IMG/VR virus record: IMGVR_UViG_3300010167_000010
Coordinates: 64,001 to 128,000 of that record
Direction: 5' to 3' (one strand)
From: a virus
Lineage: Duplodnaviria; Caudoviricetes
DNA length: 64,000 bases
Both the position numbers and the translations under genes were made by a program. Under the pieces are notes generated by a model, which worked only from the letters and a program-made list of their open reading frames with translations, was not told the origin of the DNA and searched no databases. Below, in pieces: positions 5,753-20,200 of the stretch. Within the stretch, counting starts at the first letter, position 1, and the number at the start of each line of letters is the position of its first letter.

Positions 5753-6292
5753 ATGGTATATATTTTTGAAGGTGTTGATAACGTCGGAAAGGGGACACAA
5801 ATTCAAAAATTAAAAAGACATCTTGAAGAAAAGGGAGAATTAGTTCATATACTACATTACTCAAATATTAAGGGTGATAATATTGAAGAAAGATCTAAAC
5901 AGTATTATTATGAAATGTTTAATTTAATAAAGTTTGCAACATTTAATAAAATAAATTTAATATTAGATAGAGCACATGGGGGTGAAACAGTATATTCACC
6001 TATATATCGTAATTATTCTGGTGATTATATTTATGATATTGAACAAAATTTTGGAAACCGAATATTACAAAATATAACTTTATTTGTATTTACAGACGAT
6101 CCAGAAAATTTAATTGATAGAGAAGATGGTCAATCTTTTTCTACAGAATTTGAAAAGAAAAGAGATGAAATTGTTAAGTTTATAGATTTCTTTGAAAAAT
6201 CTAAAATAAAAAATAAAGCTTTAATAAATATTCAAGATATGGATATTGAACAAGTTTTTAATAAAATGAAAGAATTTATAGAGGCGAAATGA
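5753..6292 (+). CDS. dNMP kinase (thymidylate-kinase fold), candidate modified-dCMP kinase
   Basis: P-loop FEGVDNVGKGTQ, DRAH..ETVY; ATGA overlap with the hydroxymethylase. Confidence 0.8.
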   Translation: MVYIFEGVDNVGKGTQIQKLKRHLEEKGELVHILHYSNIKGDNIEERSKQYYYEMFNLIKFATFNKINLILDRAHGGETVYSPIYRNYSGDYIYDIEQNFGNRILQNITLFVFTDDPENLIDREDGQSFSTEFEKKRDEIVKFIDFFEKSKIKNKALINIQDMDIEQVFNKMKEFIEAK

Positions 6293-7125
6293 GTTATAGT
6301 GTAAATGCAAGAAACTTTATTGAAGTTATTCTTGACCCCCTTTATAGGGAATTAAAAAATAATAATATAGTTAATGGGACTGTAGAAATTATTGATGCTC
6401 ATGTATTTTTTATGGCTAATGATGAGACAGCTATGGAATTAGGAACACATCGTAAAGCACAGCATAAATATATTGAGAATGAAAAAAAATGGTATTTAAG
6501 TATGGATAGATGTATTAAAGGACATCCTGGAATTGAAGATAATCAGATATGGAGTAAAATTTGTTCTGATGATGGTATAGTAAATTCGAATTATGGGTGG
6601 TGTGTATTTTCTGCAGATAATGGAACTTTAAGCAAAGGAAGTATTTATACTAATGCAGAATATGGTGGAGAACATATGTCTCAATATGATTTCGCATTAC
6701 AACAATTAAGATTAAGTCCAGAAGGAAGACAATCTATAATTTATTATTCTCGACCAGAAATGCAATGGGAATGGAATGACAATATAAATGCTAAATATGA
6801 TTTTACATGTACTATAAATACACAACATTTTATTCGTAATGGAAAATTAGATTATATTGTCAACATGAGATCTAATGATGCAATTAGAGGATTACATTGC
6901 GGAGATTTACCGTGGCATGGATATGTTTATAATAAAATGTTAGAAGATATAAATAAACATAGAGATATAAATAGTTATATTAAATCTGGTAAAATATTTT
7001 GGAATGCTGGTAGTCTTCATGTTTATAAAAGAGATTTTGAATTACTAACAAAAATAGTAGAAGAATATAGAGAATGGTATAAAGATAATCTTGGACCGAA
7101 AACTTTTCCTTTCGTAGGTGGATAA
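6289..7125 (+). CDS. dCMP hydroxymethylase-like protein (thymidylate synthase family, T4 gp42-like)
   Basis: NSNYGW, catalytic DFTCT, MRSND...GD-LPW (Asp rather than the TS Asn, so cytosine-type), WNAGSLHVY, colinear with T4 gp42. Confidence 0.85.
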   Translation: MSYSVNARNFIEVILDPLYRELKNNNIVNGTVEIIDAHVFFMANDETAMELGTHRKAQHKYIENEKKWYLSMDRCIKGHPGIEDNQIWSKICSDDGIVNSNYGWCVFSADNGTLSKGSIYTNAEYGGEHMSQYDFALQQLRLSPEGRQSIIYYSRPEMQWEWNDNINAKYDFTCTINTQHFIRNGKLDYIVNMRSNDAIRGLHCGDLPWHGYVYNKMLEDINKHRDINSYIKSGKIFWNAGSLHVYKRDFELLTKIVEEYREWYKDNLGPKTFPFVGG

Positions 7126-7155
7126 TTATTGGAAGAGGATATAATCAAATAAAAA

Positions 7156-7164
7156 TACTAATTA
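7156..7164 (+). promoter_or_regulatory. class B promoter-like motif WACTAAWTA
   Basis: TACTAATTA 2 nt before ATG 7167. Confidence 0.55.
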
Positions 7165-7166
7165 TT

Positions 7167-7838
7167 ATGAATTATAGAAAAAAATATATGAAAATAATTA
7201 GTAAAGCTAGAAAAGAAAGTAGAAGAAAAAATTGTGGAATTTATTATGAAGAACAACATATTTTACCACAAGCCATTTTTCCACTTTGGAAAAATCGTAA
7301 ATCAAATAAGATTCTTTTAACTGGAAGAGAACATTTTGAAGCACATAAATTATTAGCGAAAATTTATGGTGGTAAAATGATTAATGCTATTCATAGGATG
7401 GCGTTCGGATGTCATAAAAATAAATATAATATTACAGCTGAAGAATATGAAGAAATAAGAATTATTTGGGCACAAAGAGCACGGGAAATGAATACAGGAA
7501 AAAAACATTCTAATGAAGCAAAAATTAAATCTGGGAGATATTGGAAAGGAAGAAAAAGAAATATTGAATCTGTTAAAAAATCTGCTGATGCAAGAAGAGG
7601 TGTTTTAAGAACTGAACAACAAATTGTTAATATAAGTAAAGGGACTTCTGAAGGAATGAAAAAAGTTCCTTATGAAAAATTAGCTTATTGGAAAGGAAAA
7701 AGTTCTCCTGGAATGGCAAATATGACTGGAAAGTGTTGGTACAATAACGGTCAAATTGAAATAGCATCTTTTAATTGTCCAGATGGTTTTATAAAAGGAA
7801 GATTAAGTGGAAAAAAAAGAAAAACAAAAAAAACTTGA
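7167..7838 (+). mobile_element. free-standing HNH homing endonuclease with NUMOD-type repeats
   Basis: YYEEQHILP...N.I.LTGREHFEAH.LL HNH pattern, basic GKKHS/GRKRN repeats, C-terminal WYNNG..CPDGF.KGR. Confidence 0.8.
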
Positions 7839-8355
7839 TAAGTTTTTTTTAGAAACAGCGGTGAAAGCTGCGGAATTTTCTTCATGTATTCGATTAAAAG
7901 TAGGGGCTGTTATAACTAAGGATAATAGAATAATTTCTACTGGTTGGAATGGAGTCTCTTCAGGTGTTCCGCATTGTAATGAATTAAATAATGAATTAAG
8001 ATTAATTAATGATGATTCTTTATATCAAATAGAAGATAGAAAAAAACATCATATATTTTCTGAACAATTTGAAATTCATGCTGAAATGAATGCTATATTA
8101 GATATGGCAAAACGCGGATTATCACCCGAAGGAGCAACACTTTATACTACAATTGCTCCTTGTACAAATTGTGCGAAGCTCGTTATAGTTTCTGGTATTA
8201 AAAGAATAGTTTATTTAAAAGAATATGATAGAGATAATAATAAATTAGATATTGAGGGAAAAACTTTGAATGATGTCTTATATAATAATTTAAACGGACC
8301 ACAAATTATAAAAGTTTTATCACCTAATGTAATTATAGAAAAATTTGAGGAATAA
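7807..8355 (+). CDS. dCMP deaminase
   Basis: S.C.RLKVGAVI, GWNG, HAEMNAI, PCTNC zinc motifs. Confidence 0.92.
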   Translation: MEKKEKQKKLDKFFLETAVKAAEFSSCIRLKVGAVITKDNRIISTGWNGVSSGVPHCNELNNELRLINDDSLYQIEDRKKHHIFSEQFEIHAEMNAILDMAKRGLSPEGATLYTTIAPCTNCAKLVIVSGIKRIVYLKEYDRDNNKLDIEGKTLNDVLYNNLNGPQIIKVLSPNVIIEKFEE

Positions 8356-8358
8356 AAT

Positions 8359-8616
8359 ATGTTAGAACTTTGGTTATTCATGATAGTTTTAGTAAGTTTA
8401 TTTCATTTAATTTGTAATACACTTTGGAGAATAAAAGATCATCAAAATTGGAAGGCTACTAATTTATTTCATAATAGACTTATAAAAATACAAGAAGATT
8501 ATAATAGAATGCAACGAGATGCTCATAATACTGCAATGGCTAATCAACAAATTCAACACGAACATCTAATTAAAGCAATAGATGAAGGGAAAATTCAAGT
8601 AATAAATCCCAGTTAA
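8359..8616 (+). CDS. small membrane protein with coiled coil
   Basis: N-terminal hydrophobic helix; GAGG SD. Confidence 0.65.
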   Translation: MLELWLFMIVLVSLFHLICNTLWRIKDHQNWKATNLFHNRLIKIQEDYNRMQRDAHNTAMANQQIQHEHLIKAIDEGKIQVINPS

Positions 8617-8620
8617 TATA
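8611..8620 (+). promoter_or_regulatory. class A promoter-like motif
   Basis: AGTTAATATA then AAGGAG and ATG 8641. Confidence 0.55.
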
Positions 8621-8640
8621 AAAATCAAGGAGATATAAAT

Positions 8641-9285
8641 ATGTCACAAGTTCAAACTACGCCTAGCGAATTATTAGAAGAAGCATATGAAACATTAAAA
8701 GAAAAAAAGATGGCCTCTAAACATATGAACATGATAGCTTCAGATACGGCTAAAATGCAAAAAATAGAAAAACCTATTCTTGTTAGGGTAAAAGATTATT
8801 ATCATTATCGCGGGGCTGGTTGGGAAGGAAAAGATCCTCTTAGTAGAGTTCAAGATGAAAAATTTCCAGATAGAGTAACACCAACTATGAGAAAATTATT
8901 ACAAATTGTAGATGATTTGGCAGCAGTAGGTCAATTAGATATGCTAGATGTTTATTTTGATGCTCTAAAAGCTAAAGGAATTGAAATAACTGTTTCAAAT
9001 AAAGATGTAAGAGTAAGTGATGTTGATGAAACTTGGCAAGCAGTAGAAAATATGTCAGGATTTCAATCTAAAATATGTCAATTAGCTGATGAAATTAATT
9101 TTGGTTGTACACAAGTAGCAGAAGATATAAATTTTACACCTAAACAAGAATTTAAAGGTGTTCTTAATTTATACGCTAAAAAAGAAGAAGCTAAAGATGT
9201 AGATGATATGTATCAAGATAAAGTAACTGGTTTACAAATGACAGAAACGGCTTGGAATAATGTATACGACGAAAATCTAAATTAA
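8641..9285 (+). CDS. helical protein, possibly tandem T4 DsbA-like dsDNA-binding domains
   Basis: Strong SD; two halves each ending in a motif reminiscent of DsbA (IEKPILVRVKDYYHY / TPKQEFKGVLNLYAKK); function is inference. Confidence 0.45.
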   Translation: MSQVQTTPSELLEEAYETLKEKKMASKHMNMIASDTAKMQKIEKPILVRVKDYYHYRGAGWEGKDPLSRVQDEKFPDRVTPTMRKLLQIVDDLAAVGQLDMLDVYFDALKAKGIEITVSNKDVRVSDVDETWQAVENMSGFQSKICQLADEINFGCTQVAEDINFTPKQEFKGVLNLYAKKEEAKDVDDMYQDKVTGLQMTETAWNNVYDENLN

Positions 9286-9296
9286 GGATTATAAAA

Positions 9297-9464
9297 ATGG
9301 AAGTTAAACTTGCTTCTCATTTAGAACAATCTCTTTGGTTAAAATATTATGAAAAATTTTTAGAAAGAGAACCTAATCAATATAAAAATGCAGCTGCTTA
9401 TGCAGATAATATTGTTATTGAATTTAAATCTAGAAATAATTATATTGATCAATATGACGATTAA
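9297..9464 (+). CDS. small hypothetical protein (55 aa)
   Basis: MEVKLASHLEQ...QYDD* after AAGGA; below the ORF-track cutoff. Confidence 0.65.
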   Translation: MEVKLASHLEQSLWLKYYEKFLEREPNQYKNAAAYADNIVIEFKSRNNYIDQYDD

Positions 9465-9477
9465 AAGAGGAACAATA

Positions 9478-9720
9478 ATGGGAACAGAAATATCTCGAAC
9501 ATTTACTGATGAACAATTATTTAATTTAGAATTGTCTATAAAAAGTATTATATTAAATGAATTAGAAAGACAAGTTTTTCCTCGTCTTTTAATAGATGCC
9601 CCAGTAATTCCATATGCTGAATTATCTAAAATAATAAATAACTTAAGAACAACACCTACTTTAAAAATAACAGAAACAGGTGTTTCAATAGGATTACCAA
9701 ATGAATCAATACAAAAATAA
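9478..9720 (+). CDS. hypothetical protein
   Basis: Start moved to MGTEIS at ATG 9478, after AGAGG. Confidence 0.65.
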   Translation: MGTEISRTFTDEQLFNLELSIKSIILNELERQVFPRLLIDAPVIPYAELSKIINNLRTTPTLKITETGVSIGLPNESIQK

Positions 9721-10330
9721 ATTTATAGTTTTTGAAGGAGCTGATACGTGTGGAAAAAGTTCTACATGTGAATTATTTGTAGAACATTTAAAATCTAATA
9801 ATATAGATGTAGTAAAAACTTTTCAACCTGGAGATACTGAATGGGGTCCGTTAGCATCTTTATTTAGATCTCTATGTAAAGACAAGCGACATAATTTATC
9901 TGAATATGGTAATTTATTTGCATTTTTATTAGATAGGGCTGAATGTGTAGATAAAATAATTAGACCGGCTCTTAAAGAAGGGAAAACAGTTGTATGTGAT
10001 CGTTATACTTATAGTACAATTGCATATCAATTATACGGAAAAAATTTAATAGAAGATTTAACTTTAACTTGTGGACAAGAAATAGCAATGGCACTTCTTC
10101 AATGGTTTAAAAACCCTTATACAGATATTATTCCAGATATAGTCTATTATTTCCCAGAAAAAGTTGGAAATAGAATTAATGATATAAATGATAAATTTGA
10201 TAATGCGACTGATGATTTTAATAAAAGAGTTCAAAATGCTTATCATTTAATGTCTATAAAACATAATTGGAAAATAGTTAAACCTGGAAGTTCTGTTGAA
10301 GAAACTTTAACTAATTTGTTAGGAGTTTAA
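9701..10330 (+). CDS. tmk: thymidylate kinase
   Basis: FIVFEGADTCGKSS, FQPG, LDRA, VVCDRYTYSTIAYQ, PDIVYY. Confidence 0.9.
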   Translation: MNQYKNKFIVFEGADTCGKSSTCELFVEHLKSNNIDVVKTFQPGDTEWGPLASLFRSLCKDKRHNLSEYGNLFAFLLDRAECVDKIIRPALKEGKTVVCDRYTYSTIAYQLYGKNLIEDLTLTCGQEIAMALLQWFKNPYTDIIPDIVYYFPEKVGNRINDINDKFDNATDDFNKRVQNAYHLMSIKHNWKIVKPGSSVEETLTNLLGV

Positions 10331-11281
10331 ATGAAAGTAATAGTAACGGGACATGCTGGCTTCATAGGAAGCCATCTTTGTGATGATCTCTTAAAAAGAG
10401 ATTATGAAGTAATTGGTATAGATAATTTTTCTAATGGAAAAGAAAAAAATATAAAACACTTACATAAAAATAAAAATTTTACGTCTATAAAAGGCGATAT
10501 TATGAAAAGGCTTCCAGGTGAAGAAGAAAAAATATTTGAAAATGTTGATGCTATTTTTCATTTCGCAGCTAATTCAGATATACAAAAATCTTCTAAAGAC
10601 CCATCAATAGATTTTCGTAATACTTTTCATATTACTGTTCAAATGCTAGATTATTGTAGAAAATATAATATAAAGAATTTTATATTTTCCAGTACTAGTG
10701 CAATTTATGGTGATACTAATAATATGAAAGTTCCGGAAAACCATGGACCACTTATTCCTCAATCACATTATGGTGCTGCTAAATTATCAGCTGAAGCTTT
10801 TATTAGTTCTTATGCAGAAAATTTCGGAATTAAATCTTGGATAATTAGGTTTCCAAATGTTTGTGGTTCTAGAATGACTCATGGGGCTATTTATGATTTT
10901 ATTAAACAATTACAATCACAAAAAGATTTAGTTAAAAATTTAAATGTATTAGGTGATGGTAAACAATGTAAACCATATATTCATGTATCTGAACTAATAA
11001 ATGCAATTATTTATATTTGGTTAAGTTCAGCACGCAAAGTAAATATATATAATGTAGCACCTGAAACACAAACTACAGTAGCTGATATTGCTAAATGGTG
11101 TGGTGATGCTTTTGGTGAAGTTAATATAAAGTTTGAAGATAAACCAATTGGTTGGACAGGTGATATAGCAAAATTTCAATATAACACAAGTAGACTACAA
11201 AAATTAGGTTTTGAATTAAAAATGACTTCTGATGAAGCTGTTAAAACATCTATACATGAATTAATTAAGGAGAAACTATGA
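10331..11281 (+). CDS. NAD-dependent NDP-sugar epimerase/dehydratase (extended SDR)
   Basis: VTGHAGFIGS, SSTSAIYG, YGAAK, RFPNVCG, GDGKQ. Confidence 0.92.
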   Translation: MKVIVTGHAGFIGSHLCDDLLKRDYEVIGIDNFSNGKEKNIKHLHKNKNFTSIKGDIMKRLPGEEEKIFENVDAIFHFAANSDIQKSSKDPSIDFRNTFHITVQMLDYCRKYNIKNFIFSSTSAIYGDTNNMKVPENHGPLIPQSHYGAAKLSAEAFISSYAENFGIKSWIIRFPNVCGSRMTHGAIYDFIKQLQSQKDLVKNLNVLGDGKQCKPYIHVSELINAIIYIWLSSARKVNIYNVAPETQTTVADIAKWCGDAFGEVNIKFEDKPIGWTGDIAKFQYNTSRLQKLGFELKMTSDEAVKTSIHELIKEKL

Positions 11282-11850
11282 AAAAATACGAAGAAAATTT
11301 AGAACAATATTTCAATGAAGAAATAATGATTTTAGAACATTTAAAGAAGGATAAGAATATAGTTATCCTATTAGATCATTTATTAAATGCTAGAAATAAT
11401 TTAAGAACAATATATATTATGGGAAATGGTGGATCAGGAGCCGCCGCATCTCATTGGGTTAATGATTTTAATAAGGGAATGCATGGAACGCCACCATTTA
11501 AAATGATTTGTTTAAATGATAATATTGCAACACTTACTGCTATTGCTAATGATGATAGTTATGATAATGTTTTTGTTAAGCAATTAGAATTTAGAGTAAC
11601 AAATAACGATTTAGTAATAGGTATTTCTGGTAGTGGTAATTCTCGAAATGTAATTAAAGCAATAGATTATGCTAATGCTGTTGGAGCAATGACTTTTGCT
11701 ATAGTTGGTTTTGATGGTGGAAAATTAAAGAAAGAAGCTAAATGTGCTATTCATATAAATACTAATGAAATGGGAATATTTGAAGATTTATCTATGACTA
11801 TAGATCATGCTATATTTTATCTCTTTAAAAAAGGTTTGTTAAATGGGTAA
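11278..11850 (+). CDS. gmhA: SIS-domain phosphoheptose isomerase-like protein
   Basis: GNGGSGAAASH, TAIAND, GISGSGNSRNV, GFDGGKL, EDL...H. Confidence 0.85.
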   Translation: MKKYEENLEQYFNEEIMILEHLKKDKNIVILLDHLLNARNNLRTIYIMGNGGSGAAASHWVNDFNKGMHGTPPFKMICLNDNIATLTAIANDDSYDNVFVKQLEFRVTNNDLVIGISGSGNSRNVIKAIDYANAVGAMTFAIVGFDGGKLKKEAKCAIHINTNEMGIFEDLSMTIDHAIFYLFKKGLLNG

Positions 11851-13168
11851 GCGAGTTATAATTTTGGGTGGTGGGTTATCTGGAATAACTTTAGCTCATA
11901 CGCTACAAAATTATCCAGAAATAGACACTATAGATATAATAGAAAAAGAAGAAAAATTAGGTGGACTTTGTCGTTCATTTAAATCTAAAGATGGTATAGA
12001 TTACGATATAGGACCTCATATTTTCTTTTCTAAAAATAAAGATACTTTAGAATTTATGAAAGATATTATGATGCCTTATATAAATTCTTATAGACGTTCT
12101 AATCAAATAATTCATAAAAGAAAATTTGTTCAATATCCTTTTGAGAATGATTTGGGAAAATTAGACGAAGAAGAAAAAAAATATGTTCTTAGAACTTTTA
12201 ATGAAAATCCATACGAAAATTTAGAAGCAACAAATATGAGACAATTTTTTCTAAAAACATTTGGAAAAGGTATTTGTGATTTATATTTATTGCCTTATAA
12301 TGAAAAAATATGGAAATATGATTTATCATTTATGGATTTACAAATGGTTGAACGTATTCCTAAACCACCAACAGAAGATATACTTAAATCTATTAATGGT
12401 GAAACAGTTGACGGATATACACATCAATTAAATTTCTTTTATCCAGAAAAAGGAGGTTGTCAGACATTTATAGATTTATTTGTAAAAGAATTAAAACATA
12501 AGGTAAGATTTATAAAAGAAAAGGTTGTAAATATAGAAAATGGTTGTATAAATAATACATATAATTATGATATTCTAATTTCTACAATCCCATTAAATGA
12601 ATTTACTAATTTATTTCATGAAAAACCAAATGCGCCTTCTACACAAAAAACTTTATATCCAGTAAAAGAATATGGAGATAATCTAGTTTATAACGGAATA
12701 GAAATTTTTATAGTAAATGTTGAAGGTGATATTGGAGAAGAAAATTTTGCATTTATGACAGCTGATAAAAATATAGAATTTCATAGATTATCTAAATTAG
12801 ATTATTTTGGAAAAAATTATCATAAACCAGGAACTACCACATTTATGATAGAAGTTACTAAACCTAAAGAAGAATTACATTTATCTAAACATATAAATTA
12901 TATAAAACTTATGATAGAAAATGGTTTAATGAAATTATTTGGTACTGATATTAAAATAAATAATATAGATTGTAGTATGTATAATTATGCATATGTAATT
13001 AATGATATAAATCAAAAGGAGAATAAAAGAAAAATATTTGAACACTATAAACAAAAATACAAGAACATTTATTTTGCTGGTCGCTTTGGTTCATGGCAAT
13101 ATCTAAATATGGATCAAACAATTGAAAACGCTTGGAATGTAGCTAAGGAGATTAAAAATGACTTTTAG
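11843..13168 (+). CDS. FAD-dependent NDP-sugar pyranose mutase-like flavoprotein (UGM/Glf-like)
   Basis: GGGLSG Rossmann, EK...GGLCRS, GPHIFF, YNEKIW, GRFGSWQYLNMDQ. Confidence 0.75.
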   Translation: MGKRVIILGGGLSGITLAHTLQNYPEIDTIDIIEKEEKLGGLCRSFKSKDGIDYDIGPHIFFSKNKDTLEFMKDIMMPYINSYRRSNQIIHKRKFVQYPFENDLGKLDEEEKKYVLRTFNENPYENLEATNMRQFFLKTFGKGICDLYLLPYNEKIWKYDLSFMDLQMVERIPKPPTEDILKSINGETVDGYTHQLNFFYPEKGGCQTFIDLFVKELKHKVRFIKEKVVNIENGCINNTYNYDILISTIPLNEFTNLFHEKPNAPSTQKTLYPVKEYGDNLVYNGIEIFIVNVEGDIGEENFAFMTADKNIEFHRLSKLDYFGKNYHKPGTTTFMIEVTKPKEELHLSKHINYIKLMIENGLMKLFGTDIKINNIDCSMYNYAYVINDINQKENKRKIFEHYKQKYKNIYFAGRFGSWQYLNMDQTIENAWNVAKEIKNDF

Positions 13169-13343
13169 ATTCGGAGAAAAAAATATAACTATAGAGGAAC
13201 TTATAGATTTAATTCCTCGATGCGGTAATGTAGATTTTACTTTAACAGGTGTAGAAGCTATGGATTTAGCAATTATTATTAAAAAACTTTATGAAGATAA
13301 TAAAATGATATATGATTCAGAAGGAGAATTTGTAAGAGAATGA
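13158..13343 (+). CDS. hypothetical protein
   Basis: 61-aa ORF, AAGGAG SD. Confidence 0.65.
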   Translation: MTFRFGEKNITIEELIDLIPRCGNVDFTLTGVEAMDLAIIIKKLYEDNKMIYDSEGEFVRE

Positions 13344-13621
13344 TAGAAATAGTTCTTGTTTCTACTTTTATTAGTTGTATTGGATTATTCTTATTAGCTG
13401 TTATTATTGAAAAAGCTTATACTTATAATAGACATAAAACTAAAAAAGTTATATTTAAAAAAGTAGAAAAAGAACGTTATATAAAACCAATAGAACAGAT
13501 AAAGGAACAGGAAATTAAAAAAGTGGAATTTAATTTTGATGACTTTGTAGATTTTTCTGTTCCTGATAAAACAGAAAAAATAGATAATATAGATATGTTT
13601 AATTTAGGTGAATTTAAGTAG
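13340..13621 (+). CDS. small membrane-anchored protein
   Basis: N-terminal TM helix; ATGA overlap. Confidence 0.6.
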   Translation: MIEIVLVSTFISCIGLFLLAVIIEKAYTYNRHKTKKVIFKKVEKERYIKPIEQIKEQEIKKVEFNFDDFVDFSVPDKTEKIDNIDMFNLGEFK

Positions 13622-13637
13622 AGGTTAATGTATTAAA

Positions 13638-14528
13638 ATGAAAAAAACAGCAGTAATGATATTAGGTGGTAATGGCCCAAAATCTAAAATGTATAATTCA
13701 GATTTTCCAACTTTCCAAACTAATGAAAAACAAGATATGTATATATTTTATCCTGCGGGAAAATATCCTGATTGGAAATTAGACCCATCAATTGGAACTT
13801 TAATTGATGATAATGGTCCATTTAAAACACCAGTAGTTCCAACTATTAGAAATAATATGATAGAGTTTGTAAATAAAAAGGGCTATGAAATATTATGGAT
13901 AGTAGATGATGATATAACTAATTTTTATCGTTTTCATGAAAAACAATCAGACGATCAACCTTTACAAAAAGATAAAAAAACACCACTACCAGATGTTGAA
14001 GAATTATTTGGTGGGATTATTGGAGCTAACTTTAAACGATTTAAATTAAAGACTGGAAAAAAATATTCTAATCAAATACCTTATTCTTGTATGTACCTAA
14101 ATTTAAAAATGTATAAAGAAAAAGGAATAAACCCTTTGTTTGAAATAGGTGTAGCAACTTGGGATGACTTTGATTTTGCTTTACAAATGAGACAAAAAGG
14201 ATTTTTACCACAAACATTTAATCAATATGCTATTATAAAAACTGGAACTCAAGATAGTGAAACTGTTGGAAAAAGTATTGCTGCTTCTGGAATAGATAAA
14301 GTAAATAAATTGGGATTTGAATTATATAAAAAATGGGGACATGCTAATACAGCTGTAAAGTTAAAAGTAAATATTATTGATGTTGCTCCAGCTCTTTGTA
14401 AATCTTTTCAACCAAAGTTTTGGACATATAGAATTGATACATATGAAAATTGGAAAGAAGACGTATTAAAAGATTCTAAAAATTTACGAAAATCTGAAAA
14501 GGCTAAAAAAGAAGGATTACATGTTTAA
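13638..14528 (+). CDS. GT-A glycosyltransferase, TAGT/GREB1-like
   Basis: RNNMIEF...WIVDDDI, WDDFDFALQM, LYKKWG pattern. Confidence 0.65.
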   Translation: MKKTAVMILGGNGPKSKMYNSDFPTFQTNEKQDMYIFYPAGKYPDWKLDPSIGTLIDDNGPFKTPVVPTIRNNMIEFVNKKGYEILWIVDDDITNFYRFHEKQSDDQPLQKDKKTPLPDVEELFGGIIGANFKRFKLKTGKKYSNQIPYSCMYLNLKMYKEKGINPLFEIGVATWDDFDFALQMRQKGFLPQTFNQYAIIKTGTQDSETVGKSIAASGIDKVNKLGFELYKKWGHANTAVKLKVNIIDVAPALCKSFQPKFWTYRIDTYENWKEDVLKDSKNLRKSEKAKKEGLHV

Positions 14529-15213
14529 GTTTGGCGAAAATAAATCGTTACAACTATTTAATATTTTAAAAGATAAAAAAACAGGATTACTTTATAGAGA
14601 AAATAGTTCTGACGAAATTACTCTTAAAGACGTTAAATCTGAATATAAAAAATTATATCCTTTTTGTAAAGATAAAACTATTTTAGATATGGGCGCTAAT
14701 ATTGGAATATTTACTCATTATGCTTTAGAAAATGGTGCAAAAAAAGTTATTTGCTATGAACCTGAAGAAATAAATTATTCTATATTACTTAATCAAAATT
14801 TTAAACAAGTAGAATTACATAATGTAGCTATTACTCAATCAGATAGTTTTATAATGTTATATAGCACACCAATTAAAGAAGGAAAAAAAATATCTACAGA
14901 TAATCATTCTATAAAACAAATAAGAGGAAGAACTGCAAAACAAGTTGAATCTTTAAATTTTAGAAAACAATTAGATTTGCATCAACCTGATATATTAAAA
15001 GTAGATATTGAAGGTGCTGAGTTTATTCTTGATTTTAAAAATTTACCAGAATGTATAAAATATATTGCTATAGAAATTCATTATCAACTTGATGAAATTT
15101 GTTCTGATAAATTATTAGAAGTTTTAAGAGACCAATTTAATGAATTAGATTTTAAAATGAAAAATATGTTTAAGAAAAAGTTTGCAGCTGTTTTTATAGG
15201 AGAAAGAAAATGA
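14521..15213 (+). CDS. FkbM-family SAM-dependent O-methyltransferase
   Basis: LDMGANIGIF, CYEPE, LKVDIEGAE, IEIH. Confidence 0.9.
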   Translation: MFKFGENKSLQLFNILKDKKTGLLYRENSSDEITLKDVKSEYKKLYPFCKDKTILDMGANIGIFTHYALENGAKKVICYEPEEINYSILLNQNFKQVELHNVAITQSDSFIMLYSTPIKEGKKISTDNHSIKQIRGRTAKQVESLNFRKQLDLHQPDILKVDIEGAEFILDFKNLPECIKYIAIEIHYQLDEICSDKLLEVLRDQFNELDFKMKNMFKKKFAAVFIGERK

Positions 15214-16010
15214 AATATTTAATAGCTATTGCGGCAAGAAGTTCTACTTTTCTACACCCCAAACATCCTAATATTATTTATTTTATGGATGATGATCAAA
15301 CAGACCATTATAAAGATGTAAATCATATTGCTTATCCAAGAGCACATTTACAAGCTAAAAGAAACTTTGTTTTAGACTATGCACGATCTAATAATATAGA
15401 ACATTTAATAGTTTGTGATGATGATGTAGATTATTTCAGAACACCAGAAAAGAAAAAAATAGATTTTATTTCTGGTTGTGAAGAAATGATTAAAATAGCT
15501 AAAGAAGAAAAGTTAACTGGAATGATGTTAACACAAGATGTATTTATTCATTGGAAAAAAGATGCTGAAAAATTTACAAATTGTACAAAATTGGCTTGGT
15601 GTTCTTATTTAAATGTAAAACAAACTCCAGCTAATATTAGATATGATGAAACTCCTAAAACATTCGAAGATGTTGACATGGCCTTACAATTAATGCATGC
15701 TAATCAATCATTAAAGACTTATAATTGGTTATCAGCTCACATGATATCACATAAATCTACTTGTTTTGATCCAGAAAATTATGCAAAAGGTTTTCTTGAA
15801 TATATGTGTAGACTTTATATTAAATGGGGTGATGTAGTAAGTATACATCAACAAAAAAGATTTCCTAAATCACCATACGGATTTAGATTAAAATTAGATA
15901 AATTTCATAAATGGACTAAAAAAGAATTAGCTCAAGCAATATTAGATAATTATACTGAAGAAAATGTAAATAAGTTTTTTGATAAAAAATACGTCTTTGG
16001 TCAAGTTTAA
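15210..16010 (+). CDS. GT-A glycosyltransferase, TAGT/GREB1-like
   Basis: KRNFVLDYA...VCDDDV, RYDE...FEDVDMALQL, LYIKWG; paralogous to 13638..14528. Confidence 0.7.
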   Translation: MKYLIAIAARSSTFLHPKHPNIIYFMDDDQTDHYKDVNHIAYPRAHLQAKRNFVLDYARSNNIEHLIVCDDDVDYFRTPEKKKIDFISGCEEMIKIAKEEKLTGMMLTQDVFIHWKKDAEKFTNCTKLAWCSYLNVKQTPANIRYDETPKTFEDVDMALQLMHANQSLKTYNWLSAHMISHKSTCFDPENYAKGFLEYMCRLYIKWGDVVSIHQQKRFPKSPYGFRLKLDKFHKWTKKELAQAILDNYTEENVNKFFDKKYVFGQV

Positions 16011-16025
16011 TTACTAATTAGGATA

Positions 16026-16118
16026 ATGCTAAAAAATATATTAAAGATTACTCTTTCAATAATAATTACGATTATAATTCTTTTTATTTATTCAATTTTT
16101 ATGTTACGATTTATTTAG
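16026..16118 (+). CDS. 30-aa hydrophobic peptide
   Basis: MLKNILKITLSIIITIIILFIYSIFMLRFI* after the class B motif at 16012-16020. Confidence 0.4.
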   Translation: MLKNILKITLSIIITIIILFIYSIFMLRFI

Positions 16119-16692
16119 CATCAATAACTTCAACATTAGATAAGTTTAAATTTCTGGCTGCCTTTAAGTTTTTATCATCATCATCAATAAATACTACATT
16201 ATCGTACATATCAGCAATCATTTTTATAATTTTAGCTTTTCTTTCAAAATCTTTTAATCCATCTAACACTTCACAATATTTTTCATCCCCAACGGCATAA
16301 GATAATGATTTTTTAAAATTATTTTTTATATCTTGAAGTCTCCCATCTTTATCTCTAAATTTTAAAAATGACATCATTGCGTCTTTAATAACATCTTCGC
16401 ATCCCCTTGCTGTTAAAAAAGCACAATCATATCCCTTATTGATATAATTATCTATAATTTTAAGATTACTTAATAATGGTGTTCCATTCATTATAGAGCG
16501 TCTAACTATATCTGGATCATTAAATTCCCAATAATCGTATGTAATTCCAGGTTTTCCCTTGTCTGAATCATTTGCAAATTCTTCTGTAGATAATCGTTCT
16601 TTTTCTCCGTCTTTAAACTTCCAAATACCAATATCTTCTACCTTAGATTTAAGTATTGTATCGTCTATGTCGAAAAGAACTATACTGTTCAC
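16111..16692 (-). CDS. HAD-superfamily phosphatase/nucleotidase
   Basis: FDIDDT, LTAR, K, FIDDD motifs. Confidence 0.8.
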   Translation of the reverse strand: MNSIVLFDIDDTILKSKVEDIGIWKFKDGEKERLSTEEFANDSDKGKPGITYDYWEFNDPDIVRRSIMNGTPLLSNLKIIDNYINKGYDCAFLTARGCEDVIKDAMMSFLKFRDKDGRLQDIKNNFKKSLSYAVGDEKYCEVLDGLKDFERKAKIIKMIADMYDNVVFIDDDDKNLKAARNLNLSNVEVIDAK

Positions 16693-17099
16693 GTTATCAT
16701 ACCTTTATTTAAACTATTTTTATCTGTTTGATTTATATGATTTATTACCCATTCAATTAAAAAGAATACGACATCGTCTAAACTAAAATTAATTTCAGAC
16801 GTTTCTATAATACCACCAATTTTTTTAATAAATGTAGAGTGTTCATATCTATGTTGGTCTAAAAATCTTTTATTTATGTTATTTAATTCCATTATATTTT
16901 CTTCAGTAGAAAAATGTTCAATTATATAATTTGTAATTTCATCTTTTACTGAATTAAAATACTTAAGTTCTTTTTTATGATCTAAATCTATATTATTTGT
17001 TAAATCATTGATGAAATTTATTAGACCTTTATGCTGATTATCTACGATGTCTAAACCTGTAGCCAGTTCTTCTGACCACTCTAAAACTTGTGATTTCAT
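16689..17099 (-). CDS. bacteriohemerythrin
   Basis: W....TG...VDNQH, HF..EE, H..EH..F, W..NHI...D; all di-iron ligands present. Confidence 0.88.
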   Translation of the reverse strand: MKSQVLEWSEELATGLDIVDNQHKGLINFINDLTNNIDLDHKKELKYFNSVKDEITNYIIEHFSTEENIMELNNINKRFLDQHRYEHSTFIKKIGGIIETSEINFSLDDVVFFLIEWVINHINQTDKNSLNKGMIT

Positions 17100-18892: not shown

Positions 18893-20200
18893 ATGAAGAA
18901 GAGTAATCTCAAATGGGCTGTTATTCAGCCTTTAACTGGCGGCGTTTATTTTGCTGCTGAACAATCTTTTGGTAAATCGGCTGAATGGATTTTATCATAT
19001 CCTGGATTAGAAAAAGAATATTTTAATAAAGACGGTAAATGTATCAATATGGGTAATGAAAGACATTTACTCAAATATCTAGAAAAGAATAATAATTTAC
19101 CACCATATACACAATTTGATCATGATATGTTTGATGATAGAAACGGAAAAATTATTCATATAAAAAATAATGAAGAATATGGAAATAAAAAATTTAAAGA
19201 AGACGACATCATAAAAAATGAAATAGATTTAATTTGTGCTGTTCCTGTTTGTTCAGGTTTGAGCGCTGCTAATACTCAGGATCATGGAAAAAAAGATAGT
19301 ATTAAAAATAATAATATGAAATTTATTACTGAGTTTACTTTAACATCAATTCAGCCAAAAGTATTTATATTTGAAAATGCACCTAATCTTTTTACTAATG
19401 TTGGTATTGAAGTTAGAGATTATCTTAATAATGTTGCTTTAGATAGAGGTTATTCAGTTTCTTATATAAAAACAGATACTAGATTACATAAAAATGTTCA
19501 AAAAAGAATTAGAACATTTGTTATATTTTGGAAATGGTTAGATAATAAACCAACTCCTCCGCCAATGATTGGTTATGAAAATGCTCCTTTTGATACTGTT
19601 CAAGAATACTTAAATTTAATTCCAAAAAATGCTACACAACAAGATATAATATTAAATGAAGTAAATAAAGATAGAGAATATAATTTTATTAAAAAACATT
19701 TTGGTAAAAATTGGCGAAAAGAAGTCGGAAGACAAAGATTAAAAAGTTTTATTATATCGAGAGGACTAGAAAATGATTTCTATCAATTTCATAAAGACGA
19801 TAAATTAAAAGCTCATTATAAATATTGTAAACATAAACTAGATATTCAAAAAGGTTATTTTGATAGATCACATTTTGTAATGGGTAACGATTATATGCCA
19901 ACTGTTTATCATGGAAATACTTGGTCAGCAATACACCCGACAGAAGATAGGTGTCTAAACTTTAGAGAATATATTCATGCTATGGGTTTACCGCACGATT
20001 TTGAATATTTGCATAATAAACATACTTTTGGTTCTGTTATTGGTCAAAATGTTCCAGTAAATACTTTTAAATTTTGGATTGATGAATGTAGGTATATAAT
20101 TGAAGATTGGGATAATAGAAGAAAAAAAGCTCCAATAGGAGTAAATAGAACTAATGTTTATTTTCATGATAATATTCATCAACGCGGAGAATATAAATGA
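18893..20200 (+). CDS. divergent DNA cytosine-C5 methyltransferase
   Basis: Motif IV PVCSGLS, VI FENAP, VIII QKRIRTF, IX HPTEDR..REY..AMG.P, X GQNVP; motif I altered (IQPLTGG). Confidence 0.8.
   Translation: MKKSNLKWAVIQPLTGGVYFAAEQSFGKSAEWILSYPGLEKEYFNKDGKCINMGNERHLLKYLEKNNNLPPYTQFDHDMFDDRNGKIIHIKNNEEYGNKKFKEDDIIKNEIDLICAVPVCSGLSAANTQDHGKKDSIKNNNMKFITEFTLTSIQPKVFIFENAPNLFTNVGIEVRDYLNNVALDRGYSVSYIKTDTRLHKNVQKRIRTFVIFWKWLDNKPTPPPMIGYENAPFDTVQEYLNLIPKNATQQDIILNEVNKDREYNFIKKHFGKNWRKEVGRQRLKSFIISRGLENDFYQFHKDDKLKAHYKYCKHKLDIQKGYFDRSHFVMGNDYMPTVYHGNTWSAIHPTEDRCLNFREYIHAMGLPHDFEYLHNKHTFGSVIGQNVPVNTFKFWIDECRYIIEDWDNRRKKAPIGVNRTNVYFHDNIHQRGEYK

Follow-up and report, generated by a model that had tools for sequence, protein, structure and literature searches.

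A jumbo phage gene block predicted to produce 5-hydroxymethylcytosine and to glycosylate it with a phage-made sugar

The sugar coats that phages place on their DNA decide whether it escapes restriction, CRISPR, type IV, and glycosylase defences, and they have also been a source of useful enzymes, such as the T4 beta-glucosyltransferase employed for mapping 5-hydroxymethylcytosine (5hmC). In the T-even phages, a gp42-type hydroxymethylase acts together with a nucleotide kinase and a dCMP deaminase, and the sugar is transferred to 5hmC after replication. T4 takes host UDP-glucose, its kinase is gp1, its dCTPase is gp56, and its alpha- and beta-glucosyltransferases both have the GT-B fold. Phages RB69, DLP3, and RL38J1 combine a ThyA homologue with a Tmk-like kinase and arrive at an NDP-furanose through an SIS isomerase (an arabinose-5-phosphate isomerase), a kinase, a HAD phosphatase, and a nucleotidyltransferase; the sugar is arabinose or galactose, the transferases are GT-B enzymes, an FkbM counterpart is missing, and the Rhizobium phage RL38J1 encodes a UDP-galactopyranose mutase (UGM), used for galactose on cytosine, and has its transferases dispersed in the genome (PMC13326640). 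In the clusters characterised at NEB, 5hmC is generated by a methyltransferase plus TET, and epimerase-dependent GT-A DNA transferases were established; one metagenomic cluster, contig 53, was reconstituted with a GT-B transferase, a HAD/APH bifunctional enzyme, a cytidylyltransferase, and E. coli metabolites to give mono- and di-heptosyl-5hmC (5-HepmC was reported at 449 amu), and ThyS-associated GT-A contigs with dCMP deaminase and epimerases were also noted (bioRxiv 10.1101/2023.12.21.572611). Here, we describe a block of genes at positions 5753 to 16692 of a 64,000-nucleotide window, which comprises bases 64,001-128,000 of the IMG/VR record IMGVR_UViG_3300010167_000010, a jumbo phage genome of 329,018 bp with direct terminal repeats that is estimated to be complete and has a GC content of 27% (about 23-33% within the window). 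A first-pass annotation of the window had proposed a DNA hypermodification pathway for this block, and every gene that it named is indeed in its place according to the open reading frame (ORF) list and the Pfam, PHROG, and NCBIfam profile scans with which we assigned families; it did, however, overlook an HNH homing endonuclease gene. We favour the interpretation, at a probability of about 0.6, that this phage would replace cytosine with 5hmC and glycosylate its DNA with a sugar of its own manufacture.

The predicted base depends upon a 278-aa protein of the ThyA family (6289..7125; like all of the genes discussed here, it is on the plus strand unless stated otherwise). Its best matches in the Protein Data Bank (PDB) are the T4 dCMP hydroxymethylase structures 1b49, 6l18, and 6a9a (E 5.7e-37), whereas the best thymidylate synthase there reaches only E 7.4e-8. 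Residues Cys174, Asp206, and Asp171 align with Cys148, Asp179, and Asp145 of the T4 enzyme. In terms of the positions that discriminate among ThyA homologues, Asp171 is found at the L143 position, Asp197 at the D169 position (E. coli ThyA numbering), where the aspartate is retained, and Asp206 at the N177 position. An Asp at the N177 position confers specificity for cytosine, an acidic side chain at L143 leads to a non-methyl product through hydration of the exocyclic methylene, and the flavin-dependent 5-hydroxy-dCMP synthases (RB69, DLP3, and RL38J1) are recognised by the substitution of Asn for Asp169 (PMC13326640). Given hmC-type residues at the discriminating positions, we predict that the product is 5-hydroxymethyl-dCMP and not 5-hydroxy-dCMP. 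Thus, the T4 gp42-like enzyme with a cytosine-type Asp that had been recognised at first pass is borne out, while of the two bases then left open, hmC and hydroxy-C, the former is supported and the latter is disfavoured. The gene is also the sole ThyA-family member in the genome, which encodes ThyX elsewhere, and therefore the gp42-like enzyme is not the dTMP synthase of the phage.

A glycosylated, ether-linked 5-hydroxycytosine of the RB69/DLP3/RL38J1 type would account for the pairing of a Tmk-like kinase with a ThyA homologue and an SIS isomerase, as all three are found in the 5-hydroxycytosine phages, but we regard this base as very improbable here. The diagnostic D169 position reads RSND in our phage and RS(N/G)D in four relatives (the contigs that we refer to as L002, L010, L012, and L009), as opposed to RSQN in the aligned RB69 gp48, so the D169N signature is absent. 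Furthermore, the T4 dCMP hydroxymethylase leads the PDB matches by 29 orders of magnitude, and the kinase and the SIS protein both lack meaningful similarity to RB69 gp45 or gp55.

The remaining nucleotide genes are compatible with a supply of 5-hydroxymethyl-dCTP ahead of replication. The hydroxymethylase start is overlapped by 4 nt by the stop of the preceding gene (5753..6292), such that the two are translationally coupled. The latter encodes a 179-aa Tmk-like P-loop nucleotide kinase (Pfam Thymidylate_kin, E 1.6e-9; phrog_761) with a GKGT P-loop at residue 12 and an LDR motif at residue 71, which we infer to be a 5hm-dCMP kinase and which, unlike the T4 kinase, is not gp1-like. In the pathway that we favour, the gp42-like enzyme would convert dCMP to 5-hydroxymethyl-dCMP before replication and the coupled kinase would phosphorylate it for incorporation by the phage polymerase, while the dCMP deaminase (7807..8355; Pfam dCMP_cyt_deam_1, E 5e-23), ThyX, and a canonical dTMP kinase (Tmk, 9701..10330; TIGR00041, 97 bits with a cut-off of 83) would use up dCMP and furnish the 27% GC genome with dTTP. 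This pre-replicative route through a ThyA homologue also sets the phage apart from the NEB clusters. The TET/JBP profile (PF12851) found no match in the genome, which is uninformative, since the control genomes gave none either.

Sugar transfer to the base would fall to two glycosyltransferases, GT1 (13638..14528) and GT2 (15210..16010). GT1 scores 38.0 bits against the Pfam TAGT family (PF20691), for which the gathering threshold is 27.5, whereas the more divergent GT2 scores 24.7 bits and is just below threshold; its positional counterpart in L002 nonetheless reaches 46.8 bits (E 4.5e-12). The AlphaFold2 model of GT1, built from a 16-sequence alignment, has a pLDDT of 84 and shares the GT-A fold with GalNAc-T2, LH3, RmlT, and TarP (Foldseek probability 1.0, Z up to 12.5). 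Viral structures match it better than any cellular enzyme (E 1e-9 to 3e-7, TM 0.5-0.6), and the best of these are phage TET-associated glycosyltransferases, the phiRSL1 transferases, and a TAGT-like beta-glucosyl-HMC-alpha-glucosyltransferase of the T-even type (T2/T6-type). The GT2 model has a pLDDT of 72 and likewise has a GT-A fold at Z 11-12 (best 11.7) in a Foldseek-independent search. Accordingly, the GT-A fold upon which the first-pass annotation had made its reading depend is modelled for both proteins at Z of about 12, which distinguishes them from the GT-B enzymes of T4 and of the RB69 group. Both proteins also contain the elements of an R..DDD..(E/D)D(Y/F) motif (R71, D90-D92, and D176-D177 in GT1; R51, D70-D72, and E153-D154 in GT2), a motif that has been described both in phage GT-A enzymes that modify 5hmC and in the trypanosome JGT (bioRxiv 10.1101/2023.12.21.572611). 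The NEB clusters have in common with this locus the TAGT/JGT-like GT-A transferases carrying the motif, the partner epimerases, and the pairing of transferases. From its structural neighbours and its place beside the hmC synthase gene, we infer that GT1 is a DNA 5hmC glycosyltransferase, and after replication the two enzymes would place either a single sugar or a pair of them on the hydroxymethyl of 5hmC in DNA.

GT1 is otherwise a protein with few relatives. A word index identified three among 5.8 billion proteins and a profile search identified 21 matches among 1.84 billion representatives, while a sequence search of the PDB returned nothing useful, a viral-contig scan gave no match, and tblastn gave none among 50,697 phage records. 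For GT2, the only close relative (57% identity) is encoded at L016:10001-10804, on an 83-kb contig beside HTH, RadC, HNH, and GIY-YIG genes, which suggests that this type of transferase moves between elements. We also observed a C-terminal tail of the form (F/Y)x(F)G-x1-3 in the product of 15210-16010 as well as in P0025, L002:13825-14697, L010:10935-11822, L010:10001-10969, and L012:10001-10978. An FxFG-type tail terminates two ORFs in the whole genome and none among reversed sequences, and in the TAGT-like transferases it might be a docking motif.

Between the two transferase genes, and overlapping both, is a gene for an FkbM-family S-adenosylmethionine (SAM) methyltransferase (14521..15213), which scores above the cut-offs of both TIGR01444 (64.2 bits vs 37.7) and PF05050 (40 bits vs 22.7) and has a GANIG motif at residue 58; its sequence search of the PDB returned generic SAM-binding stretches only. 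The gene is kept beside the transferases in L002, L010, and L012. Because it is retained even in relatives that lack the heptose cassette described below, its substrate is probably the DNA-linked glycan in general, and the enzyme appears to be a glycan O-methyltransferase. None of the papers examined describes a DNA glycan that is methylated.

It could be argued that none of this concerns DNA hypermodification and that the block is simply ordinary nucleotide metabolism situated beside host-acquired polysaccharide genes. A dCMP deaminase and a Tmk are common phage nucleotide genes, and the sugar cassette clearly derives from bacterial polysaccharide genes. Such an explanation seems to us highly unlikely, however, as it leaves out a ThyA homologue with residues of the hydroxymethylase type that the phage, having ThyX, does not need for dTMP, transferases that belong to the DNA-associated TAGT family and whose nearest structures are phage DNA transferases, and a core that is conserved in four phage lineages. 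Judged from homology and gene context, the block is very probably an hmC-based DNA glycosylation system.

The genes that may provide the sugar lie immediately upstream of the transferases. The SDR NDP-sugar 4-epimerase gene (10331..11281) follows Tmk with a 0-nt gap, the gene for a GmhA-like SIS isomerase (11278..11850) is placed between and overlaps those of the SDR and of a UGM-family flavoprotein (11843..13168). Throughout the run from Tmk to GT2 (9701-16010), all intergenic gaps are ≤16 nt and most gene pairs overlap; the run contains ten ORFs, of which seven are the assigned genes and three are small and unassigned. Because Tmk, SDR, SIS, mutase, GT1, FkbM, and GT2 are packed in this manner and are syntenic in L002, the sugar genes are probably linked to DNA modification.

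The best PDB match of the SDR is the Pyrococcus PhGal4E_1 (8rdg), to which it aligns end to end (E 5e-64), followed by 3ehe, 3icp, and 3aw9. This group consists of archaeal GDP-sugar 4-epimerases (PMC12171764), and the SDR is closest in sequence to this subgroup, with conserved YGAAK (the catalytic Tyr-x3-Lys) and GWTGD motifs as well as N176 and H184 (N174 and H182 of PhGal4E_1). The Trp of GW(K/T)GD is shared and may be the residue that stacks upon guanine. For the SIS protein, TIGR00441 (gmhA) is the best family (E 2e-26), the phosphate-binding motifs GNGGS and SGSGNS (SxSGNS) are found at residues 49 and 117, respectively, and every PDB match is either GmhA or DiaA. It is the sole SIS domain in the genome and is GmhA-like, unlike the arabinose-5-phosphate isomerase of RB69, with which it shares no similarity. 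The flavoprotein aligns with the T. cruzi UGM (4dsg) over residues 4-421 (E 5e-25), and all of its structural relatives are UDP-galactopyranose mutases. Its motifs are the FAD-binding GGGLSG (GxGxxG) at residue 9, GPH of the conserved His loop at 57 (the GGH of TcUGM), and GRFG at 413. Since it scores 67 bits against a cut-off of 304 for the classical bacterial equivalog TIGR00031, it belongs to a separate UGM branch. The earlier description of a UGM-like flavoprotein is therefore accurate as to family, but the branch is the PRK07208/eukaryote type rather than classical bacterial Glf.

The first-pass annotation had noted that a sugar kinase and a nucleotidyltransferase were missing from the block and would have to lie elsewhere, and candidates for both are present in the same genome along with a GmhB-like phosphatase. 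At 234.3 kb, there is a GHMP kinase, the sole such hit, whose best NCBIfam family is HddA (E 2e-44). At 295.8-297.1 kb, an HddC-like NTP-transferase gene, at 295.8 kb, overlaps that of a GmhB-like HAD phosphatase (PRK08942, E 6e-45), in which a histidinol-phosphatase domain is above its cut-off; for the nucleotidyltransferase, the NF049969-type, MurU, and ManC families score alike. We found no match for a PfkB kinase in the genome. Searches for HddA in L002, a contig that is 29% complete, and in LR756500, a 462-kb uncultured phage, gave no match either, which is uninformative. Taken as a pathway, GmhA-, HddA-, GmhB-, and HddC-like enzymes would allow the phage to activate its own sugar from sedoheptulose-7-phosphate, the SDR would 4-epimerise the activated heptose, and ring contraction to a furanose would be the task of the UGM-family flavoprotein, after which transfer to DNA and O-methylation of the glycan by the FkbM enzyme would follow. 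T4, by comparison, draws its sugar nucleotide from the host and encodes no such pathway, ring-contracting mutase, or methyltransferase, while NEB contig 53 relies upon a different set of genes in place of the GmhA/HddA/GmhB/HddC-type set, the GDP-sugar-type 4-epimerase, the pyranose-furanose mutase, and FkbM.

The strongest evidence on the identity of the sugar is an association of operons in bacteria. The flavoprotein has >3600 bacterial homologues at about 48-50% identity, and in four of the five contexts that we inspected (L025:1119-9317, L027:2251-11317, L028:2152-8252, and L029:2726-7078), the homologue is located in one operon with an NTP-transferase-HAD (GmhB) fusion, a GHMP kinase, an SIS gene, and usually an SDR; the fifth context had no heptose genes inside the stretch examined. 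The operon of L029 is a minimal four-gene version (HddC-GmhB, HddA, GmhA, and mutase) that has no epimerase, and its SIS gene is directly followed by the flavoprotein gene, just as in the phage. All six of the phage sugar proteins match a single bacterial operon at 35-52% identity (49% for SIS). As these six functions are united in bacterial operons, the phage product is probably an NDP-heptofuranose, and the simplest reading of the flavoprotein family is that of an NDP-heptopyranose/furanose mutase. A heptofuranose had been mooted as a possibility in the first-pass annotation, and the bacterial operons lend it independent support. A comparable reaction is encountered in the C. jejuni capsule (HS:10 and HS:41), in which a FADH2-dependent mutase acts after the tailoring enzymes to yield GDP-heptofuranosides, although these mutases are uncharacterised (PMC10680097). 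The C. jejuni products are destined for the capsule, however, and the mutases act upon 6-deoxy-heptoses after a dehydratase and a reductase (PMC10680097), neither of which we see in the phage.

The similarity of both tailoring enzymes to galactose enzymes raises the question of whether the sugar is a hexofuranose instead, with the SDR serving as a GalE-type 4-epimerase, the flavoprotein as a UGM of the Galf type, and the heptose kept separate or off the DNA. Among NCBIfam families, the SDR scores best with GalE (TIGR01179, E 6e-46), the solved relatives of the flavoprotein are UDP-galactopyranose mutases without exception, and RL38J1 provides a precedent in its use of UGM for galactose on cytosine (PMC13326640). 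We nevertheless consider this improbable, because the closest solved relatives of the SDR are from the GDP-sugar subgroup and not UDP-GalE, the bacterial orthologues of the flavoprotein share operons with heptose genes, in one instance in the complete absence of an epimerase, and the phage SIS gene is inserted between the SDR and the mutase with overlaps on both sides. In our estimation, a sugar derived from phage-made NDP-heptose is thus the probable one.

Related phages provide a second line of evidence. L002 (IMGVR_UViG_3300006226_001721, a 94-kb IMG/VR contig) contains the entire block in the same order at 25-77% amino acid identity, and scans of viral contigs with the mutase and with the SIS alignment recovered this contig only. 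L010 and L012 are metagenomic phage contigs that keep an SNF2 helicase, the kinase, the ThyA homologue, the deaminase (which is thereby conserved in all three relatives), a 212-214-aa protein, TAGT transferase(s), and FkbM. Tmk is retained in L010, whereas at its position in L012 there is a 208-aa gene without a family; L012 additionally carries a DUF2608 HAD and a C5-methyltransferase. The kinase and ThyA-homologue pair is conserved in five phage lineages, which include L002, L010, L012, and LR756500. Together, the synteny of the block in L002 and the presence of its core in L010 and L012 indicate that this is not a chance arrangement. In place of SDR, SIS, and mutase, L010 and L012 both have a radical SAM enzyme of 437-442 aa beside a TAGT transferase and FkbM (L010:11828-13156 and L012:10975-12288), which suggests a different tailoring of the DNA glycan. 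Since the core is kept while the sugar genes vary, we can conclude that the locus combines a core that is conserved with a cassette for sugar tailoring that can be exchanged.

No gene of the block is better conserved than that of a 214-aa protein (8641..9285), which has 77% identity in L002 and counterparts of 212-213 aa in the corresponding place in both L010 and L012. It has no Pfam, PHROG, NCBIfam, or Atlas family, and the Atlas search gave sub-threshold portal-like leads and a poor model.

Several of the findings weigh against a phage-made heptose on DNA. The absence of SDR, SIS, and mutase from L010 and L012, which nonetheless keep the transferases and FkbM, implies that the transferases are not strictly dependent upon this sugar. 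The heptose genes are spread over three loci. In one of these (genome 234299-241025; L008:2300-9026), the gene of the HddA-like kinase is coupled to that of a GT32-type transferase, which has a DXD motif, and a 776-aa GT2+GT4 fusion protein is encoded 3 kb downstream among Rad50-like, PIF1 helicase, and HD genes. With its genes scattered in this way and GT32 and GT2-GT4 transferases nearby, the heptose could feed other transferases. The scores of the GmhA-like (92.9 bits for a cut-off of 209), HddA-like (152.6 for 600; NF049969), and GmhB-like (153 for 178) proteins are all under the NCBIfam equivalog cut-offs, and two residues of PhGal4E_1 are replaced in the phage SDR (P80 by Ser and R83 by Gln). 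The T4 system includes a dCTPase, yet neither the MazG profile nor a search with an RB69 gp56-like protein found one in this genome, although these are weak tests of a single profile and a single protein. Both the acceptor and the site at which methylation would occur are purely a matter of surmise. Lastly, a C5-cytosine DNA methyltransferase homologue next door (18893..20200; Pfam DNA_methylase, E 6e-17) is odd if cytosine is fully replaced. This homologue has an unusual P-V-C catalytic motif at residue 118 and ENA at 161, shares 61% identity with its counterpart in L002, and is present in L012.

In the main alternative, hmC is made and the two TAGT transferases glycosylate it with an ordinary host sugar nucleotide such as UDP-glucose, while the heptofuranose serves the GT32 and GT2-GT4 transferases on virion proteins or the host surface. 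The translational adjacency of HddA and GT32 is what one would expect from such an arrangement, as are the relatives that have transferases and FkbM but no sugar cassette, and the bacterial cassettes themselves feed surface polysaccharide loci with family-GT2 enzymes and ABC transporters. We still judge it to be unlikely, if less so than the other alternatives. The SDR, SIS, and mutase genes form one overlapping run with GT1, FkbM, and GT2 that is conserved in L002, and the neighbours of GT32 and the GT2-GT4 fusion are not structural genes but Rad50-like, PIF1 helicase, and HD genes, such that DNA may be the target of these transferases as well; in RL38J1, DNA transferases are normally dispersed (PMC13326640). 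The GT32 and GT2-GT4 enzymes may therefore extend the DNA glycan or serve a separate target. We continue to favour phage-made heptose on 5hmC, and it is in the details of the sugar that our confidence declines: that it is a furanose and O-methylated on DNA is a tentative proposal, and equally tentative is the expectation that virion DNA of this phage and of its L002 relative contains 5hmC with an O-methylated heptofuranose and possibly a second sugar.

The overlooked HNH homing endonuclease gene (7167..7838; phrog_655, E 3.5e-32) is located between the hydroxymethylase and dCMP deaminase genes and overlaps the deaminase start by 32 nt with its 3' end. Its absence from L002, L010, and L012 marks it as a mobile insertion that is not part of the pathway. 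The 415 nt between the 214-aa gene and Tmk (9286-9700) contain no convincing gene, and in L002 the counterparts of these two genes overlap; the stretch is a phage-specific insertion or a regulatory region. Two small ORFs of 61 and 93 aa (13158..13621), the latter with a hydrophobic N-terminus, are not conserved in sequence, and L002 carries different small ORFs at the same position. On the minus strand, a DUF2608/polynucleotide-kinase-phosphatase-like HAD phosphatase (16111..16692) matches phrog_415 'polynucleotide kinase' (E 6e-9) and Pfam DUF2608, has 66% identity in L002, and is present in L012, while a sequence search of the PDB gave nothing useful. We had considered this HAD as the sugar phosphatase and rejected it, as it is polynucleotide-kinase-phosphatase-like and a GmhB-like gene is present elsewhere; the gene reported at first pass is real, and it is probably outside of the sugar pathway. 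Downstream of it, also on the minus strand, is a gene for a hemerythrin-domain protein (16689-17099) that has no counterpart in L002. A promoter/terminator scan found signals no more frequent than the shuffled expectation, and megablast found no nucleotide relatives of the block among the 50,697 deposited phage records.

The first-pass annotation had stated that no characterised base is known with this gene set. This is still true, yet heptosyl-5hmC and a UGM-dependent DNA glycan have already been published, and such prior art, namely the reconstitution of heptosyl-5hmC and a UGM-using phage, reduces the novelty of the locus. What is new is the combination of pre-replicative hmC, TAGT GT-A transferases, a phage-encoded GDP-heptose-type pathway, ring contraction, and O-methylation. 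A wholly phage-made heptose, a furanose ring, and an O-methyl group are predicted features of the DNA glycan that are unreported together or at all, and the transferases come from a family so rare that about 20 relatives can be detected in 1.8 billion proteins.

For the phage, the expected benefit of such a modification would be resistance to restriction, CRISPR, and glycosylase defences. If the proposal is correct, the product would be without precedent on a nucleobase, both as a furanosyl heptose and as a methylated glycan, its ring would be contracted by a member of a large bacterial family of NDP-heptose mutases, and the sister phages with the radical SAM enzyme would make another glycan. 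It would also provide a testable function for the >3600 bacterial proteins of this family that are currently labelled 'FAD-dependent oxidoreductase' or 'protoporphyrinogen oxidase'. With its conserved core and its exchangeable cassette, the locus has the appearance of a natural system in which modules for DNA glycans are swapped.

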